Below, piece by piece: positions 6,846 through 15,120 of a stretch of 37,546 bases of DNA. Position 1 is the stretch's first letter; every line of letters begins with the position of its first letter. The translations under genes and the position numbers were made by a program. The notes below the pieces were generated by a model that searched no databases, was not told the DNA's origin, and saw only the letters and a list, made by a program, of their open reading frames with translations. The stretch comes from a virus (taxonomy: Duplodnaviria > Heunggongvirae > Uroviricota > Caudoviricetes): IMG/VR virus record IMGVR_UViG_2713896773_000006, positions 1 to 37,546 of that record; one strand, 5' to 3'.

Positions 6846-7722
6846 GTTAGCTGATTACAGGCATAACCCTGTACAACATCAGGAGGCATCCAGTATGGGG
6901 TATGTCTCTATACACCGCCAGTTTATGGACAGCAGGCTCTATAAGGACTCTCAGGCAGTACATCTTTGGCTTCACTTAATCCTCAAGGCTAATCACGAAT
7001 CTACTGTCGTCAATACGGATATCGGTCCGATAACTGTTGATCGCGGTCAGATGATAACTGGACGCCCGTCGCTGGTCAGAGAAACATTCATCCCCGACAA
7101 CAAAGTTAGGAGCTTATTACGGACTTTTGAGTCGAAAGGGATGCTTAATATTTGCTCGATGGGGAAGAAATTTAGCCTGTTTACAATCGTTAAATATGAC
7201 GATTTTCAGGCAAAAAATTGTCCAACGGTTGTCCAACGGTTGTCCAACGCAAACACCAGTAATGGCGCGGCTCTCAGCGGAGATTGTCCAACGGTTGTCC
7301 AACGGTTGTCCATAAACAATAATATAAATAATATCTCTAATACTGACGTATTAGAGAGTGCCACAGCAGACAAAAAGTCTGACAAGAAAAAACCTTCCGT
7401 CAGCTGTCAGGATGTTGTCGATGCTTACCACGAAATCCTTCCTGAAGCGCCAAGAATCCGCGCACTGAATGACAAGCGTAAAAACCAGATCCGAACGTTC
7501 TGGCGCAAAGCCGGAGTGATAACCCGCCAGCTTGACGGGCATGGGTTCACGATGCAGGACTGGAGAAATTATTTGAGCTACGTAGGCGAAAATTGCCGAT
7601 GGATGTTCGAAGAGCGCCCAAACCATCAACGCGGAACCGTCTGGCACAAAAAGGGATTTGATTTCCTGCTTAACGACAATACCTACCTGAAAGTTCGTGA
7701 GGGTGAACACGATGACCGATAA
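6832..7722 (+). CDS. replication initiator (lambda O-like / P22 gp18-like), iterons embedded
   Basis: 296 aa directly upstream of, and overlapping, the DnaB-type helicase gene. The central coding region carries direct repeats, as ori does inside lambda O. Alternative start ATG 6895 has a GGAGG RBS. Confidence 0.7.
   Translation: MGVVKLADYRHNPVQHQEASSMGYVSIHRQFMDSRLYKDSQAVHLWLHLILKANHESTVVNTDIGPITVDRGQMITGRPSLVRETFIPDNKVRSLLRTFESKGMLNICSMGKKFSLFTIVKYDDFQAKNCPTVVQRLSNANTSNGAALSGDCPTVVQRLSINNNINNISNTDVLESATADKKSDKKKPSVSCQDVVDAYHEILPEAPRIRALNDKRKNQIRTFWRKAGVITRQLDGHGFTMQDWRNYLSYVGENCRWMFEERPNHQRGTVWHKKGFDFLLNDNTYLKVREGEHDDR
7218..7345. repeat. candidate replication origin: about six TTGTCCAACGG iterons in two clusters plus an AT-rich tract
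   Basis: Directly visible: TTGTCCAACGG at 7218, 7229, 7240 (variant), 7284, 7295, 7306 (partial), then ATAAACAATAATATAAATAATATCTCTAATA. Confidence 0.6.
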
Positions 7723-10177
7723 TTTTTATGCGCCGCCCCATAGCATCGAGGCAGAGCAGGCGGTGATTGGTGGATTGCTTCTGGATGATGACAGCAGTGA
7801 GCGCGTCCAGAAAGTTCTAGCGATGCTGAAGCCCGATTCATTTTACAGCAGATCACACAAAATCCTTTTCGAAGAAATAACCAGAATGCACCGGGAGCAA
7901 AAGCCAGTAGATGGCCTGACGCTTTTCGATGAACTGGAGCGTAAATCGTTAACGGCGTCTGTTGGCGGTTTTGCTTATATCGCTGAGATCGCAAAGAACA
8001 CGCCAAGCGCCGCAAACATCGTTGCCTATGCAATGCAGGTTCGTGAAACCGCAATGGAACGCTACGCCATCAACCGCATGACTGAAGCGACGGAATTGCT
8101 CTATTCCCGCAACGGAATGACTGCAACGCAGAAGTACGAAGCTATTCAGGCGATTTTCACGCAACTGACAGACCATGCAAAAACCGGATCGCGTCGCGGC
8201 CTTCGCTCATTTGGTGAGGTCATGGAAGACTGGGTTAGCGACCTTGATAAGCGATTTGACCCGTCAGGCGAACAACGAGGAATGAGCACAGGAATACCAT
8301 CGCTGGACAGGATGCTGTCACCGAAAGGTCTGGTGAAAGGCTCTCTGTTTGTCATTGGCGCTCGCCCTAAGATGGGGAAAGCGCAACCGCTTAATTCACG
8401 CATTTTGCTTGCTGATGGTTCATGGACAACATTTCGTGACGTATGTGTTGGAGATTCCCTAGCATCAGTGGATGGACAACCATCATTCGTGTCTGGAGTT
8501 TTTCCTCAAGGGGAGCGAGATATTTACCGAGTTACGTTCTCTGACGGAAGAACCGTTGATTGCGCGGATGATCATTTGTGGGAAATTCATAGTAACCGTA
8601 TTACCGGTGGCGTTGATGTTGTAGACACCTGCCGCCTACGGGACATGATGGAATGCGTTCGCTATCAAAGCCGCATTCATGTTCCTGGTATTAGCGGTGA
8701 CTTCGGATTGCCTGTTGATTTAGGGATTAGCCCATGGCTGTTAGGTGCGTTACTTGGCGATGGAAATCTTGCAGGTACGCCACGAATCAGCATGACGGAA
8801 CCATACATCATTGAGCGAGTAAGATCTGAAGTGGGTGACGATATTGAAGTCAGACATGTTTCTGGCTGCGATTACTCCCTACCTCACAAGTTTAGCCGCA
8901 AATTATCTCTTACGCGGGTTATGCAACGGCTTGGTATCTACGGCCGGATGTCAGAGATTAAAATTATCCCGGATATTATTTTTTCTGCTGATAAGCAAAC
9001 TCGTATTGATGTTCTATGCGGATTACTTGAAACCGATGGTTGGGTTGAAGGAAATAATGCCCTGCGCTTTAGCTCGGCAAGCAAGTTCCTGTCAGATGGT
9101 GTAAAGCGGCTGGTGCATTCTCTTGGTGGCGTGTGTCGTATGACAACCAAACAGGAGCCGAAATTCAGTTATAAGGGAGAAATGCGCAAAGGTATGGATG
9201 CCCATATTTGCGCAATCAGGTTGCCTGATGAGGTTCTATCACACATAAAATCTCCACGCCTGAAGCAAAAATTCACTGCAAAACGCATCAAAACAAGTGA
9301 GCCTGTTATCACGTCGGTTGAGTATATTGGACGTGAAGAGTGCATTTGCATCATGGTATCCCACGAGAGACATTTGTATGCAACTGACGGATACATTCTA
9401 ACCCACAACACCACGCTATACAGCCAGATGGCAATCAATTGCGCAGTGCATGAGAAAAAGCCCGCTCTGATGTTCAGCCTTGAAATGCCAGGTGATCAGA
9501 TACTGGAAAAACTGGTAGGGCAGAAGTCTGGTGTTAACCCGAATATTTTTTACCTTCCGGCGACAAATGACGCCGATGACGGCTATCAGGGTGATTACGA
9601 TGGTGACTTCAACAGGGCGATCGAAACAGCCAATCGCTTGAGTGAAATCGACATGCTTTACATCGACGACACGCCGGGATTATCTCTGGCTCAAATCGTC
9701 AGCGAAAGCCGTCGAATCAAGCGAGAAAAAGGATGTGTTGGCATGATTCTGGTCGATTACCTGACACTAATGACCGCTGAGAAGGCCGATCGCAACGACC
9801 TTGCTTACGGCATGATCACCAAAGGACTGAAGAACCTTGCCAAAGAGCTTGATTGCGTTGTTGTGCTTCTGACACAGCTTAACCGCGCACTGGAAAGCCG
9901 AACCAATAAACGCCCATTACCAAGTGACTCACGAGATACAGGGCAGATTGAACAGGATTGCGATTATTGGGTCGGGATCCATCGTGAAGGCGCTTTTGAT
10001 GACAGTGTTCCACCTGGGGAAACCGAACTAATCCTTCGTCTCAATCGTCATGGCTATACCGGCACGGTGTATTGCATTCAGGCAAATGGCGCTATTTATG
10101 ACACAGACCAACAGTCTGCTGAAATGCGCCGCCGTGAACGTGAGGAACCGCAGTCCAAGAAGAAAGGAGGATTCTGA
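7712..10177 (+). CDS. dnaB: DnaB-family replicative helicase with an intein in the P-loop
   Basis: N-terminus MTDNFYAPPHSIEAEQAVIGGLL is DnaB-like. The Walker A is split: ...GARPKMGK | 343 inserted aa | TTLYSQMAINCAVHEKKPALMFSLEMP... (E. coli DnaB ARPSMGKTTFAMNL...LIFSLEMP, recalled). ATG at 7712 preferred over the GTG track start 7697. Confidence 0.9.
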   Translation: MTDNFYAPPHSIEAEQAVIGGLLLDDDSSERVQKVLAMLKPDSFYSRSHKILFEEITRMHREQKPVDGLTLFDELERKSLTASVGGFAYIAEIAKNTPSAANIVAYAMQVRETAMERYAINRMTEATELLYSRNGMTATQKYEAIQAIFTQLTDHAKTGSRRGLRSFGEVMEDWVSDLDKRFDPSGEQRGMSTGIPSLDRMLSPKGLVKGSLFVIGARPKMGKAQPLNSRILLADGSWTTFRDVCVGDSLASVDGQPSFVSGVFPQGERDIYRVTFSDGRTVDCADDHLWEIHSNRITGGVDVVDTCRLRDMMECVRYQSRIHVPGISGDFGLPVDLGISPWLLGALLGDGNLAGTPRISMTEPYIIERVRSEVGDDIEVRHVSGCDYSLPHKFSRKLSLTRVMQRLGIYGRMSEIKIIPDIIFSADKQTRIDVLCGLLETDGWVEGNNALRFSSASKFLSDGVKRLVHSLGGVCRMTTKQEPKFSYKGEMRKGMDAHICAIRLPDEVLSHIKSPRLKQKFTAKRIKTSEPVITSVEYIGREECICIMVSHERHLYATDGYILTHNTTLYSQMAINCAVHEKKPALMFSLEMPGDQILEKLVGQKSGVNPNIFYLPATNDADDGYQGDYDGDFNRAIETANRLSEIDMLYIDDTPGLSLAQIVSESRRIKREKGCVGMILVDYLTLMTAEKADRNDLAYGMITKGLKNLAKELDCVVVLLTQLNRALESRTNKRPLPSDSRDTGQIEQDCDYWVGIHREGAFDDSVPPGETELILRLNRHGYTGTVYCIQANGAIYDTDQQSAEMRRREREEPQSKKKGGF
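8381..9409 (+). mobile_element. intein (343 aa) with LAGLIDADG homing-endonuclease domain, probably class 3
   Basis: Insert begins with Ala and ends ...ILTHN, with +1 Thr. Two LAGLIDADG-like motifs (LLGALLGDGNL, LCGLLETDGWV). Block-B-like DDHLW, block-F-like Cys (EECICIM) and Thr before the terminal His-Asn give the WCT pattern. Boundaries inferred from the extein alignment. Confidence 0.8.
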
Positions 10178-10484: not shown

Positions 10485-10931
10485 ATGAAGCAAATATACA
10501 TGCTTCGCAACGAAGCAATCAGAAACAACGCCATAGACGCAATACTCTCACTTCCGATCGACGACAAGTCACCTCACGAAGTCCACGTTAGAGAACCCAA
10601 ACGCAGCAAAGCGCAGAATGACCGTATGTGGCCGATGCTGAACGATGTTTCGCGTCAGGTGCTATGGCATGGTCAACGGCTGGCGCCGGAAGACTGGAAA
10701 GACCTGTTCACTGCCCTGTGGCTTAAGACCAAAAAACTGGAGCAACGAAGTGTGCCTGGTATCGACGGTGGCGTTGTCATGCTTGGCGTGCGTACCAGCA
10801 AAATGCGAAAGGCCAGCATGACTGAGCTTATCGAAATCATGTTCTGGTTCGGCTCAGAGCGCAACGTGCGGTGGAGTGATGACTCCCGGCGAGAGTATGA
10901 ATGGTCACAACGAAAAGGGAAGGCTGCATGA
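10485..10931 (+). CDS. ninB: NinB (Orf-family recombination mediator)
   Basis: 148 aa; QNDRMWPMLNDVSRQVLWHGQRL...WSD matches the lambda NinB pattern (QNRKLWACLGDVSRQVEWHGRWL, recalled). Confidence 0.85.
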   Translation: MKQIYMLRNEAIRNNAIDAILSLPIDDKSPHEVHVREPKRSKAQNDRMWPMLNDVSRQVLWHGQRLAPEDWKDLFTALWLKTKKLEQRSVPGIDGGVVMLGVRTSKMRKASMTELIEIMFWFGSERNVRWSDDSRREYEWSQRKGKAA

Positions 10932-11455
10932 CTATCAAATCAAATACGCCGGCGTCAGATAGGTATCGGCTTATTGAGGATTATCTGTATTTAGACGGAG
11001 ATACAGTCAGATACAAAAAGGACTCGCTAAAACACCCCAACCACAGCCACCGGGCCGGAGATGAAATTAAAACATCGATAAATGGATCTGGGTATAGACA
11101 GGTGTGTTTTGCAGGCATTCAGATGTTTGTTCACGTAGTTGTTTTTGCGCTGCACAACAAAAGAATGCCATTGAAAAATATTGACCATATTAACGGAAAC
11201 AGGCTGGACAATTCCCCAAAAAATCTTAGGGAGGCAAGCCGGATAGCAAACAGCCGAAATCAGAAAACTAAGTGCAATAGCCGTTCTGGAATAAAAAATG
11301 TTTTATGGAACAAGCAAAAAAATAAATGGGCCGTTCAAGTGCGCACAGATTTTGGCCGGTTGCATTTTGGGTTCTATGAAGATCTTGAGCTTGCTGGTTT
11401 GGTTGCCAGTGAGTCTATCAACAAATATCACGGACAATATGCGAGGGTTGAATGA
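10928..11455 (+). CDS. HNH endonuclease with AP2-like DNA-binding domain (free-standing homing-endonuclease type)
   Basis: ATG at 10928 overlaps the ninB stop. HNH motif context (IDHINGNRLDNSPKNL) followed by an AP2-like segment (GIKNVLWNKQKNKWAVQV...FGFYEDLELA). Locally AT-rich relative to neighbours. Confidence 0.75.
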   Translation: MTIKSNTPASDRYRLIEDYLYLDGDTVRYKKDSLKHPNHSHRAGDEIKTSINGSGYRQVCFAGIQMFVHVVVFALHNKRMPLKNIDHINGNRLDNSPKNLREASRIANSRNQKTKCNSRSGIKNVLWNKQKNKWAVQVRTDFGRLHFGFYEDLELAGLVASESINKYHGQYARVE

Positions 11456-11982
11456 TTAAGCATAAATCAGAAACACCAAAAGAAGTTAGAGACTGCTGGC
11501 AAACGCCGCTTTGGCTTTTTGATGCACTGGATATTGAGTTTGGATTCTGGCTGGATTCAGCTGCTAGCGACAAAAATGCTCTGTGCGCTCACTGGCTAAC
11601 TGAGGCCGACGACGCGCTCAATTCTGAGTGGGTAAGTCACGGTGCAATCTGGAATAACCCACCGTACAGCAATATCAGGCCGTGGGTGGAAAAAGCAGCT
11701 GAGCAGTGCATACAACAGCGACAGACGGTAGTTATGCTTGTGCCAGAGGATATGTCAGTCGGATGGTTCAGCAAGGCTCTGGAGAGTGTCGACGAAGTTC
11801 GCATTATCACTGATGGACGGATTAATTTTATCGAACCATCGACAGGGCTGGAGAAGAAGGGAAACAGCAAAGGCTCCATGCTGCTGATTTGGCGACCGTT
11901 CATCAGTCCTCGACGGATGTTTACTACCGTATCCAAAGCGGCATTGATGGCGATCGGGCAGGGCGTCGTGAGGGCGGCATGA
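11452..11982 (+). CDS. phage DNA N6-adenine methyltransferase (Dam-like)
   Basis: 176 aa with the catalytic NPPY motif ([10 protein letters not shown]); ATGA-coupled on both sides. Confidence 0.8.
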
Positions 11983-12328: not shown

Positions 12329-12926
12329 ACCAGCGCGAAGGAAATGCAAAATATGCAAGGAATGGTTTCACCCGGCATTCTCAAATCAGTGGTGGTGCTG
12401 CCCGGAACACGGAACTCAGTTAGCACTCAAACTACAAAGTAAACAGCGAAAAAAAGCGGAAAAAGCAGCAGAGAAGAAACGACGACGAGAGGAGCAGAAA
12501 CAGAAAGATAAACTGAAGATTCGAAAACTCGCCTTAAAGCCCCGCAGTTACTGGATTAAACAAGCCCAACAAGCCGTAAACGCCTTCATCAGAGAAAGAG
12601 ACCGCGACTTACCATGTATCTCGTGCGGAACGCTCACGTCTGCTCAGTGGGATGCCGGACATTACCGGACAACTGCTTCGGCACCTCAACTCCGATTTGA
12701 TGAACGCAATATTCACAAGCAATGCGTGGTGTGCAACCAGCACAAAAGTGGAAATCTCGTTCCGTATCGCGTCGAGCTGATTATCCGCATCGGGCAGGAA
12801 GCAGTAGACGAAATCGAATCAAACCATAACCGCCATCGCTGGACTATCGAAGAGTGCAAGGCGATCAAGGCAGAGTATCAGCAGAAACTCAAAGACCTGC
12901 GAAACAGTAGAAGTGAGGCCGCATGA
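12321..12926 (+). CDS. ninG: NinG (Rap-like recombination endonuclease)
   Basis: 201 aa; Cys-rich N-terminus and lysine-rich linker typical of lambda NinG; position between ninF and Q. Confidence 0.8.
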
Positions 12927-12969: not shown

Positions 12970-13458
12970 ATGGGCATAAGAGAACTAAACCTCACCAAAG
13001 AACAGCACGAGTGGCTGAATGGCTGGCTTGAACTGTGGGGCGCATGGGTTTATTCAGGTCGTCTGGAAAAGCGCATGAGCAGCGTAATAGCTAAGTTCAT
13101 GGAGAGCGTAGAGCCGGGAAGAGTTATGACAAGGCCAATGTGTAATGATGATGATGGAATGTTGATTTCTCAGGTCGTCGATTCCGTCATGTACATTGAC
13201 AAGAAAGCCTTTGGCATCCTCCTCAGCTACTACGCCCACGGCTCTTCCAAGCACGCCATTGCATCTTACTATCATCGCGTCGCAAGACCTCGCAAGATGT
13301 TATGCCGGGGCGGCGGGCGCATTCAAAAACCATCGCTCGCAACCTGTCGACGGGAAGTTGACGAAATCCTCAATGCCTCGTTGTTTATGATTTACCCGGT
13401 TCTGGATAGTGCGTTAAAAAACCGGAAACGTGTAGAGAAAATTAAACATGTAGCATAG
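12970..13458 (+). CDS. Q: late-gene antiterminator Q (P22 gp23-like)
   Basis: MGIRELNLTKEQHEWLNGWLELWGAWV...MCNDDDGMLISQVVDSVMYID resembles the recalled P22 gp23 WGAW/CCDDD blocks. ATG at 12970 with GGGAGAAGG RBS; GTG 12913 is the longer alternative. Confidence 0.75.
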   Translation: MGIRELNLTKEQHEWLNGWLELWGAWVYSGRLEKRMSSVIAKFMESVEPGRVMTRPMCNDDDGMLISQVVDSVMYIDKKAFGILLSYYAHGSSKHAIASYYHRVARPRKMLCRGGGRIQKPSLATCRREVDEILNASLFMIYPVLDSALKNRKRVEKIKHVA

Positions 13459-13549
13459 AACGTGTTGACATCATTGAGCAAATGAGCAACACTATTCGCA
13501 TAAGCTGCCGTTAGTGACTCTTAAGTTGCAACGGTGGCTTTTTTTATTT

Positions 13550-13624
13550 GGGTCAGTCGTATAAAGGTCATTACGGAAGGCTGTTAACCTTCTTATCGTG
13601 GTTCGAGTCCACGCTGTCCCGCCA
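13550..13624 (+). tRNA. tRNA-Asn(GUU)-like, one acceptor-stem mismatch
   Basis: Hand-folded cloverleaf: acceptor GGGTCAG/CTGTCCC (T-T mismatch at pair 4), anticodon stem GAAGG/CCTTC with loop CTGTTAA, T-arm CGTGG-TTCGAGT-CCACG, 3' GCCA. Confidence 0.5.
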
Positions 13625-13629
13625 AACAT

Positions 13630-13705
13630 GCTGGTTTAGCTCCAATGGTAGAGCAGTCGCCTTGTAAGCGAATGGGTAGCGGTTCAAGTCCGTTAACCAG
13701 CACCA
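13630..13705 (+). tRNA. tRNA-Thr(UGU)
   Basis: Hand-folded: acceptor GCTGGTT/AACCAGC, D-arm GCTC-CAATGGTA-GAGC, anticodon loop CTTGTAA, T-arm AGCGG-TTCAAGT-CCGTT, 3' ACCA. Confidence 0.65.
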
Positions 13706-13792
13706 TAACTGAGCCGTAGCCACTGACTATCCTGAATTCATCAGTGATAGTTACGCTGCGGCCTTCTACACATGATCTTCGTGAAAGCGGGT

Positions 13793-13827
13793 GGCAGGAG
13801 GTTTCGCTAACAACCTCCTGCCGTTTT
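13793..13827 (+). terminator. intrinsic terminator in the late leader (candidate tR')
   Basis: GGCAGGAGG-tttcgctaacaa-CCTCCTGCC hairpin followed by GTTTTG, between the tRNAs and the holin gene. Confidence 0.55.
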
Positions 13828-13947
13828 GCCCGTGCATATCGGTCACGAACAAATCTGATTACTAAACACAGTAGCCTGGATTTGTTCTATCAGTAATCGA
13901 CCTTATTCCTAATTAAATAGAGCAAATCCCCTTATTGGGGGTAAGAC

Positions 13948-14271
13948 ATGAAGATGCCAGAAAAACATGACCTGTTAGCCGCCATTCTCGCGGCAAAGGA
14001 ACAAGGCATCGGGGCAATCCTTGCGTTTGCAATGGCGTACCTTCGCGGCAGATATAATGGCGGTGCGTTTACAAAAACAGTAATCGACGCAACGATGTGC
14101 GCCATTATCGCCTGGTTCATTCGTGATCTTCTCGACCTCGCCGGACTAAGTAGCAATCTCGCTTATATAACGAGCGTGTTCATCGGCTACATCGGTACTG
14201 ACTCGATTGGTTCGCTTATCAAACGCTTCGCTGCTAAAAAAGCCGGAGTAGAAGATGGTGGAAATCAATAA
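13948..14271 (+). CDS. S: holin, lambda S type (dual-start MKM)
   Basis: 107 aa; [63 protein letters not shown]... essentially matches recalled lambda S. Confidence 0.95.
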
Positions 14272-14731
14272 TCAACGTAAGGCGTTCCTCGATATGCTGG
14301 CGTGGTCAGAGGGAACAGATAACGGACGTCAGAAAACCAGAAATCATGGTTATGACGTCATTGTAGGCGGAGAGCTATTCACTGATTACTCCGATCACCC
14401 TCGCAAACTTGTCACGCTAAATCCGAAACTCAAATCAACAGCCGCCGGACGCTACCAGCTTCTTTCCCGTTGGTGGGATGCCTACCGCAAGCAGCTTGGC
14501 CTGAAAGACTTCTCTCCCAAAAGCCAGGACGCTGTGGCACTGCAGCAGATTAAGGAGCGTGGCGCTTTACCGATGATTGATCGCGGTGATATTCGTCAGG
14601 CAATCGACCGTTGCAGTAATATCTGGGCTTCACTTCCGGGGGCTGGTTATGGTCAGTTCGAGCATAAGGTTGACAGTTTGATTGCAAAATTCAAAGAAGC
14701 TGGCGGAATGGTCAGAGAGATTGAGGTATGA
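14255..14731 (+). CDS. R: endolysin, lambda R type (lytic transglycosylase)
   Basis: 158 aa; [52 protein letters not shown]... matches recalled lambda R. Confidence 0.95.
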
Positions 14732-15120
14732 GCAGAGTCACCGCGATTATCTCCGCTCTGGTTATCTGCATCATCGTCTGCCTGTCATGGGCTGTTAATC
14801 ATTACCGTGATAACGCCATGACCTACAAAGAGCAGCGCGATAAAGCCACATCCATCATCGCTGATATGCAGAAGCGTCAACGTGATGTAGCAGAACTCGA
14901 TGCCAGATATACAAAGGAGCTTGCTGATGCTAACGCGACTATCGAAAGTCTCCGTGCTGATGTTTCTGCTGGCCGTAAGCGGCTGCAAGTCGCCGCCACC
15001 TGTGCAAAGTCAACGACCGGAGCCAGCAGNNNNNNNNNNNNNNNNNNNNNNNNNNNNNNNNNNNNNNNNNNNNNNNNNNACTACCTGCAGGAATACATCA
15101 GGACGCAATGCCTGAAATAA
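14728..15120 (+). CDS. Rz: i-spanin Rz, interrupted by an assembly gap
   Basis: [39 protein letters not shown]... is lambda Rz-like. 50 Ns at 15030-15079 fall inside the gene, so the C-terminal frame and true length are uncertain. Confidence 0.75.
14927..15115 (+). CDS. Rz1: o-spanin Rz1 (lipoprotein) embedded in Rz +1 frame, crosses the gap
   Basis: AAGGAG RBS, then [34 protein letters not shown] with a lipobox (LAVSGC) and proline-rich mature region. 3' end undefined because of the N run. Confidence 0.6.
15030..15079. other. assembly gap (50 N)
   Basis: Run of 50 n characters directly visible. Confidence 1.

Follow-up and report, generated by a model that had tools for sequence, protein, structure and literature searches.

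The tRNA-Asn/tRNA-Thr pair of coliphage 21 has already been described, and the pair analyzed here is that known feature. In phage 21 (AJ237660; genome in PMC9119081), the Q gene, the -35 hexamer, both TGAGCA repeats, the -10 hexamer, the 50-nt leader, the terminator tR', and the tRNA pair are the same as those of our locus or nearly so. The record of the Shigella phage Sf6 (AF547987) presents PR', qut, tR', tRNA-Asn, tRNA-Thr, and a lambda-type holin in the same order and marks them as 'similar to phage 21'. The tR' and the tRNAs of Sf6 are base-for-base identical to those of our locus, whereas its Q-binding element (QBE) is a different allele, with two copies of TTAGCC where our locus has two of TGAGCA, and its Q region is ~90% identical at the DNA level. 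In the Klebsiella phage ST16-OXA48phi5.2, tRNAs occupy the same slot, from the antiterminator gene to the first late genes, and the array consists of diverged Asn and Thr copies (88% identity) plus Phe and Arg(UCU). Another tRNA island, ileZ-argN-argO, presumably lies downstream of Q in the Stx phage 933W; both this island and that of the Klebsiella phage differ from our locus in their Q families and their tRNA sets. Phage lambda follows the same logic, with a constitutive promoter, a short terminated RNA (the 6S RNA, 194 nt), Q-dependent read-through, and the same S-proximal leader with a second hairpin. It differs in having a non-homologous Q and ~170 nt of non-tRNA sequence at the slot of the cassette, in which no tRNA was detected.

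The window, that is, the whole analyzed stretch of 37,546 nucleotides (IMG/VR record IMGVR_UViG_2713896773_000006), represents the genome of a P22-like podovirus (Sf101/CUS-3-like), whereas phage 21 is a lambdoid phage with a lambda-type tail (PMC13043305, PMC9119081). Its locus is arranged in the order Q21, pR', tR', tRNA-Asn, tRNA-Thr, lambda S leader with a second hairpin, and holin, and the genes found 3' of the tRNAs are lambda-type S/R/Rz lysis genes. Judged from the presence of a Q21-family Q, the QBE, and tR', the locus appears to be a phage 21-type Q antitermination cassette. The best explanation, to which we assign a probability of roughly 0.7, is a phage 21-type tRNA cassette under the control of Q, in which both genes would be functional elongator tRNAs, with charging predicted from their identity elements, and in which the anticodon stems would have been rewritten against Toprim tRNA nucleases of the OLD family.

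Promoter, leader, and terminators of the late operon

All features described below lie on the plus strand. The Q antiterminator gene of phage 21 type occupies positions 12970-13458 and encodes 162 aa from the ATG at 12970; the mechanically called open reading frame begins at a GTG at 12913. The product was assigned to PHROG 943, 'anti-termination protein Q-like' (E = 1.5e-89), and the DNA is near-identical to the phage 21 Q gene in AJ237660. Directly downstream, the -35 hexamer TTGACA of pR' (13465-13470) corresponds in alignments to the 'pQ promoter' annotated for phage 21 and to PR' of Sf6. The QBE (13475-13488) is formed by two direct TGAGCA subsites at 13475-13480 and 13483-13488. The -10 hexamer AACACT (13488-13493), separated from the -35 hexamer by a spacer of 17 bp, was positioned from the -21/-13 numbering of the QBE and aligns with CATAAT of Sf6. 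It is weak, with 3/6 matches, yet A-11 and T-7 are kept. According to Shi et al. 2019 (PMC6606751), the QBE is composed of two TGAGCA repeats in which C:G pairs occupy -21 and -13; the oligonucleotide that they used for binding, GCAAATGAGCAACA, matches positions 13478-13491 of the window; in PMC8022706, the QBE of phage 21 is given as ATTGAGCA/AaTGAGCA. Both C:G numberings (-21 and -13) place +1 at A13500, which is also the annotated start of the aRNA.

The terminated leader RNA (13500-13549, 50 nt) corresponds to the 50-nt 'aRNA' of AJ237660, which likewise lies directly 5' of the tRNA. It contains tR', consisting of a hairpin at 13502-13540 and a U-tract at 13539-13549 (-20.2 kcal/mol, z = -4.2), at the place where Sf6 annotates tR' and qut. 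The hairpin ends in a T7-A-T3 tail that adjoins tRNA-Asn. A -10-like hexamer, TAAGCT, at 13501-13506 (+2 to +7) is a candidate for the sigma-dependent pause element; it is kept in the window, Sf6, and 720R6. The tRNA cassette covers +51 to +206 of the pR' transcript, with tRNA-Asn beginning at +51. It is followed by the lambda-type S leader (13706-13947), which is near-identical to the ~240 bp that immediately precede S in lambda and folds into two large structures. The first is a long hairpin at 13713-13762. The second is a terminator-like hairpin at 13787-13833 with its core at 13793-13827 (-29.2 kcal/mol, z = -4.9), in which a G+C-rich inner stem of 11 bp (13793-13803/13812-13822) precedes GUUUU and is enlarged by an outer 6-bp extension. 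The holin/antiholin gene S (13948-14271), whose homologues are the holins of Sf6, JEP4, and lambda, is the first late protein gene. A scan for consensus promoters and terminators gave matches only within Q and, on the minus strand, within S and missed pR', tR', and the second hairpin; these three elements were found through RNA folding and homology. An independent promoter for the tRNAs was considered and rejected, as there is no space for one: +1 is separated from tRNA-Asn by nothing but the terminated leader of 50 nt.

These elements suggest how the locus may work. The constitutive pR' (+1 at 13500) would produce the 50-nt RNA ending at tR'. Q21 would bind the two TGAGCA sites and load onto the paused polymerase, and Q-modified transcription would then pass tR', both tRNAs, and the second hairpin and enter the lysis and virion genes. 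Because tR' lies upstream of the tRNAs, they would be made mainly after Q antitermination. We infer that the host machinery excises them from this transcript, with RNase P acting at the 5' ends (U at -1 in both genes, CCA encoded) and an endonuclease followed by exonuclease trimming generating the 3' ends.

The tail of tR' is stronger than that of the second hairpin, and tR' was overlooked in the earlier note on this DNA, which had placed the strong terminator of the region downstream of the tRNAs. Its hairpin at 13793-13827 does exist, but the Q-responsive terminator is tR' (13502-13549), upstream of them. Since the 13793-13827 hairpin occurs in the lambda S leader with or without tRNAs, it is not the primary Q-responsive terminator and would instead be a second barrier; that it may act as a terminator is suggested by its folding. 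A literature search on tandem late terminators of lambda found nothing. The same note had proposed that the tRNAs are transcribed with the late operon, which fits the pR'/tR' layout, and that a TTGACA may belong to a late promoter with a weak -10. The hexamer is the -35 of a phage 21 pR' and the -10 is weak as proposed, but the position given for TTGACA (13466-13471) was one base too far to the right.

Distribution and structure of the tRNA pair

The same cassette occurs in phage 21, which we take to be a siphovirus, in Sf6 and BTP1, and in hundreds of E. coli and Salmonella prophages. The 156-bp tRNA pair is 100% identical to that of phage 21 and Sf6. Of 5,426 complete E. coli genomes, 283 carry the whole 489-bp leader (coverage ≥80%), and PGAP annotates tRNA-Thr and tRNA-Asn in it. 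When viral contigs were scanned for the unusual D-arm of tRNA-Asn, at least 119 loci were retrieved, among which Asn is followed by Thr in at least 95; other arrays among the matches listed are Asn with Gly(UCC), Asn-Phe-Thr-Arg(UCU), and similar ones. In all matches listed among these at least 119 viral loci, the cassette starts directly after the T-tract of tR', and the tR' itself may be of the 21 type, of the Sf6/L type, in which the QBE allele differs, or the lambda 6S-RNA terminator. The last arrangement, a cassette directly behind a lambda-type tR', is carried by a few viral contigs. JEP4 and S.Inf 5-2 share the end of Q, pR', the QBE, and tR' with the window and are without the tRNAs; in both, ~200 bp of lambda-like sequence free of tRNA lies between the T-tract of tR' and 'AACTGAGCC'. 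P22 and lambda are also without tRNAs at the corresponding slot. When the spacers of lambda and JEP4 were searched for a decayed tRNA with Rfam, none was found, and S.Inf 5-2 has a 3' tRNA-like half only. From these comparisons, the cassette is portable and accessory.

Across the 37.5 kb of the window, ARAGORN called no tRNA besides this pair, placing tRNA-Asn(gtt) at 13550-13624 and tRNA-Thr(tgt) at 13630-13705 on the plus strand. Both genes are well above the Rfam RF00005 gathering score of 29 bits, with 55.3 bits (E = 2e-9) for tRNA-Asn and 61.5 bits (E = 4e-11) for tRNA-Thr. The tRNA-Asn(GUU) is 75 nt long with an encoded CCA, the discriminator G73, and a U4·U69 mismatch in the acceptor stem; its anticodon arm, GAAGG-CUGUUAA-CCUUC, keeps five standard stem pairs. 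The tRNA-Thr(UGU) is 76 nt long, also with an encoded CCA, and has the discriminator A73, the pairs G1-C72 and C2-G71, and an anticodon arm, GUCGC-CUUGUAA-GCGAA, with a G27·A43 mismatch. The two genes are separated by a 5-nt spacer (AACAT), and their T-loops, GGTTCGAGTCC and GGTTCAAGTCC, are canonical. Both 7-nt anticodon loops, CUGUUAA in Asn and CUUGUAA in Thr, contain U33 and A37 and show 0/7 differences from those of the host isoacceptors. In E. coli, the identity elements of AsnRS are G34, U35, U36, and G73, and those of ThrRS are G1-C72, C2-G71, G35, and U36; all of these nucleotides were found in the window sequences. Divergence of tRNA-Thr from its host counterpart is concentrated in the anticodon stem (8/10 positions versus 18/66 elsewhere, p = 0.002), and that of tRNA-Asn is not (7/10 versus 22/54, p = 0.16). 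Collectively, the model scores, the tRNA-finder calls, the covariation described below, the loops, and the CCA ends identify the two genes as bacterial elongator tRNAs.

Alternative readings of the cassette

Two alternatives would deny one or both tRNAs a role in decoding. The earlier note had given the coordinates and anticodons of both genes exactly, had placed the pair correctly between Q and the lysis cassette, and had recognized a T-T mismatch in the acceptor stem of tRNA-Asn, which is the U4·U69 of the Rfam alignment and the fold; from this mismatch, it had doubted that tRNA-Asn is functional. Taken further, the doubt would make tRNA-Asn a decaying pseudogene carried along with a functional tRNA-Thr, in agreement with its U4·U69 mismatch and U13·U22 non-pair, with the fold of minimum free energy of the isolated tRNA, which is not a clean cloverleaf (z only -1.7), and with the demonstrable decay of the neighboring second gene in phage L. 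However, in 17 distinct tRNA-Asn variants, 94.7% of the cloverleaf cells are paired, the five pairs 5-68, 6-67, 7-66, 28-42, and 29-41 carry compensatory double changes, and the covariation score was reached by 0 of 500 shuffles. Position 4-69 is unpaired, as U·U or U·C, in 15 of these 17 variants. Because the mismatch is conserved while the neighboring pairs covary, it is no sign of decay, and the doubt falls. In tRNA-Thr, the pairs 3-70 and 6-67 change from U-A to C-G in Klebsiella-type copies. The 55-bit score of tRNA-Asn, its host-like anticodon loop, its G73 and CCA, the AsnRS identity elements, and its invariable place at the head of all array variants among the at least 119 viral loci also speak against decay, for which we see very little chance. 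The second tRNA gene of phage L, with an anticodon loop of 4 nt and rejected by ARAGORN, shows what real decay at this locus looks like. The tRNAs could otherwise serve as RNA-processing punctuation, in which RNase P detaches the tR' leader and defines the 5' end of the late mRNA and decoding is irrelevant. The cassette always abuts the T-tract of tR' among the at least 119 viral loci, and a stable hairpin follows tRNA-Thr, both in favor of such a role. Yet the anticodon loops and the aminoacylation identity elements are strictly conserved, late-gene expression is normal in phages that lack the cassette, and the phage 21 tRNA-Thr (tRNA-Thr21) restores ACA decoding in vivo (PMC12445682), so that punctuation alone is close to negligible as an explanation.

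A further pair of readings accepts decoding and places its benefit elsewhere. The tRNAs might solely raise the readers for codons over-used in the late genes, with no relation to defence. Compared with a computed 42-gene K-12 sample as the host reference, ACA is used 16.7 versus 5.4 times per 1000 codons in the late genes, a 3.1-fold increase that makes it the third most enriched codon, and Asn codons reach 50.4 versus 37.6 per 1000, rising to 60-78 per 1000 in those for injection and the tailspike. Array variants contain, in addition, Arg(UCU) and Gly(UCC) for the codons AGA and GGA, whose use is likewise enriched (4.9-fold and 2.2-fold). The host thrU is a single gene described as low-abundance (PMC12445682), and codon supply has been proposed for phage L (PMC8022706). 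However, JEP4, with identical Q/pR'/tR' and no cassette, has virtually the same demand (ACA 17.4 and AAY 48.2 per 1000), and P22 and lambda are likewise without the cassette. For AGG and AGA, the codons with the highest enrichment, the window has no matching tRNA; AAC shows hardly any enrichment, and E. coli possesses four Asn tRNA genes. Supply alone also leaves unexplained why only the anticodon stems are rewritten and why a stem-shortening mismatch is conserved in tRNA-Thr. As codon demand does not separate phages with the cassette from those without it, we rejected supply as the sole explanation and regard it in that form as unlikely; a secondary benefit, in which a scarce ACA reader would be topped up, is plausible. 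The pair could also be accessory genes expressed in the lysogen, where leaky read-through of tR', stopped at 13793-13827, would supply tRNAs without the lysis genes and benefit the host, for example against tRNase toxins. The two tRNAs are bracketed by two terminator-like hairpins, promoters of the pR' type are constitutively active in lysogens (PMC7547250), and RNA-seq of the BTP1 lysogen (PMC7067206) mentions two tRNA genes alongside genes with TPM above 100. Against this, RNA-seq is unreliable for tRNAs, BTP1 induces spontaneously in a fraction of cells, and tR' combines a strong stem with a 7-U tract. The second hairpin belongs to the lambda S leader and is present regardless of the tRNAs, so it is not a design specific to the cassette. 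We consider lysogenic expression quite improbable as the purpose of the pair; it is compatible with the main explanation and does not exclude it.

Anticodon stems and tRNA-cleaving nucleases

In the explanation that we prefer, a Q-controlled cassette directed against tRNA nucleases, the anticodon loops are kept as in the host isoacceptors and the stems would be rewritten at the recognition and cleavage positions of OLD-family Toprim tRNA nucleases. P2 Old, which acts as the effector in P2-lambda interference, was shown by Govande et al. 2025 (PMC12445682) to kill through cleavage of host tRNA-Thr(UGU). The cuts are made at the paired CNG motifs of the anticodon stem (nt 28-30 and 40-42), and host tRNA-Asn(GUU) is a slower substrate. 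In the same study, phage tRNA-Thr(UGU) genes rescued Old-attacked cells, and tRNA-Thr21, which has a shortened anticodon stem together with C28U/G42A and is near-resistant at cleavage site 1, protected Old+ Gam+ cells; the protection was plasmid-borne and only partial, and resistance needed both the shortening of the stem and the loss of CNG. The window tRNA-Thr is 100% identical to that of phage 21 and shows the same features, namely G27·A43 and CNG on neither strand; its equation with tRNA-Thr21 is based on the text description in PMC12445682 and on the single Thr(UGU) gene of phage 21. The G27·A43 mismatch is kept in nearly all tRNA-Thr variants. CNG is lost in both window tRNAs, with UCG/CGA in Thr and AAG/CUU in Asn versus CUG/CAG and CGG/CCG in the respective host tRNAs. 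Because the stem is shortened in Thr and a full 5-bp stem is kept in Asn, we claim membership in the group of anti-Old rescue tRNAs for tRNA-Thr only. About 10% of the Asn variants elsewhere re-create CNG on both strands (CAG/CUG).

The second nuclease to be considered is AriB of PARIS. Its main targets are Lys(UUU), Thr(UGU), and Asn(GUU), in which the cut site 40|41 adjoins U36AAU39, and it is jointly neutralised by the T5 variants of tRNA-Lys, tRNA-Thr, and tRNA-Asn (PMC12409363). The region of the cut site reads UAAGCG in the window tRNA-Thr and UAACCU in the window tRNA-Asn, versus UAAUCA and UAAUCC in the host. In both window tRNAs, U39 is lost, nt 41 is changed, and both CNG motifs are lost, as is also the case for the three T5 rescuers. 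Both tRNAs thus carry substitutions at or around 40|41 and U36AAU39, which makes them candidates for evasion of AriB. The likeness to the T5 tRNAs that act against AriB (PMC11464382, PMC12409363) extends to the anticodons of the targeted host tRNAs and to the rewritten anticodon stems. Unlike the large, early-expressed tRNA array of the T5 type, the window encodes two tRNAs of a temperate phage, under late Q-antitermination control and without tRNA-Lys. Since no phage tRNA-Lys(UUU) is present, PARIS of the B185 type could not be fully escaped. HepS was also considered as the main selective agent and rejected: it cleaves Thr(GGU) more than Thr(UGU), and its trigger, the J tail-tip proteins of siphoviruses (PMC13043305), makes it unlikely to matter for a podovirus.

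The timing of expression would count against a role in defence, as the tRNAs appear late, behind tR', and Old is triggered early, through RecBCD inhibition. The phage encodes a Mu-Gam-like protein, not lambda Gam, so that it may or may not trigger Old. That tRNA-Asn(GUU) is itself a nuclease-evading replacement, as its kept U4·U69 and its stem without CNG and UAAU may suggest, is a tentative idea toward which we do not lean at present.

The cassette is by itself an ordinary and well-annotated feature, and its interest stems from the recent work of others. For the tRNA-Thr, an antidote activity has been documented against P2 Old, which brings about the classic P2-lambda interference, and PARIS has both tRNA species among its preferred targets. 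Their place behind a Q-controlled terminator might time the spare tRNAs for a rescue of late protein synthesis. If the tentative reading of tRNA-Asn is true, the cassette would be a minimal, Q-timed kit of two tRNAs that counters OLD-family Toprim tRNases. It would cover the primary (Thr-UGU) and a secondary (Asn-GUU) target common to P2 Old and PARIS AriB, and the acceptor mismatch, which is maintained, could additionally confer resistance to another tRNase, one directed at the acceptor stem.

Genome context and the nin region

The window overall is a P22-type podovirus, Sf101/CUS-3-like, with a serotype-conversion module. The early-left operon on the minus strand encodes a Mu-Gam-like end-protection protein and RecT (1256-2636), and a primase/DnaB-helicase fusion of 826 aa is encoded on the plus strand (7697-10177). 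The tailspike gene is followed by an O-acetyltransferase gene on the opposite strand (31180-34180). Within the nin region, a plus-strand HNH endonuclease ORF (10901-11455; PHROG 99, E = 7e-42) is flanked by ninB (10485-10931) on one side and a DNA methyltransferase gene (11452-11982) on the other, and it looks like a mobile insertion between the two. Among the lysis genes, the overlapping Rz/Rz1 spanin ORFs (14728-15120) contain 50 consecutive N at 15030-15079, which is an assembly gap or masked sequence; the Rz and Rz1 ORFs are not readable through because of this stretch.

QBE alleles and the S leader

Two alleles of the Q-binding element (QBE) were identified. The first carries two copies of TGAGCA and is found in phage 21, the window (13475-13488), and JEP4, while the second carries two copies of TTAGCC or TTATCC and is found in Sf6, phage L, and 720R6. 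Sf6 and 720R6 differ from the window in their QBE allele, and the two alleles precede an identical terminator tR' and tRNA cassette. The Q genes paired with the two alleles share around 90% DNA identity, and the two-allele pattern fits the divergence of Q/QBE specificity that PMC8022706 has addressed.

At the other end of the cassette, the tRNA-Thr(UGU) gene (13630-13705) is directly adjoined downstream by a long, stable, imperfect hairpin (13713-13762), and RNA folding of 13706-13792 gave -30.8 kcal/mol (z = -4.3). This hairpin is also kept in the S leader of lambda, and it is possibly a processing site or a 5' stabilizer for the late mRNA.

A possible tRNA relic and tRNA gene variants

In the slot that holds the tRNA genes in the window, Salmonella phage S.Inf 5-2 (locus L004, 1597-1655) carries a tRNA-like 3' half with a perfect T-arm (GCCGGTTCGATTCCGGC) and an acceptor-like strand. 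Rfam matched it in part to the tmRNA clan (20 bits, E = 5.6e-5), and the element may be what remains of another tRNA cassette. The spacers of lambda and JEP4, searched likewise with Rfam, gave no tRNA-like match.

The gene annotated as tRNA-Leu(UAA) in Salmonella phage L (locus L005, 981-1049) is a derivative of the window tRNA-Thr, with 89% identity. A 4-nt deletion leaves it an anticodon loop of only 4 nt; it scores 42 bits with Rfam, yet ARAGORN rejects it, and it is probably non-decoding.

Among the matches listed for the IMG/VR loci (L011-L129), a few tRNA-Thr copies are chimeric: their 5' half is of the phage type, and their 3' half resembles thrU, the host tRNA-Thr(UGU) gene. One chimera carries the full host anticodon arm, and in eight the arm is host-like, its stem reduced to 3 bp by the mismatches A27·C43 and C28·U42. 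These chimeras suggest recombination between phage and host thrU.
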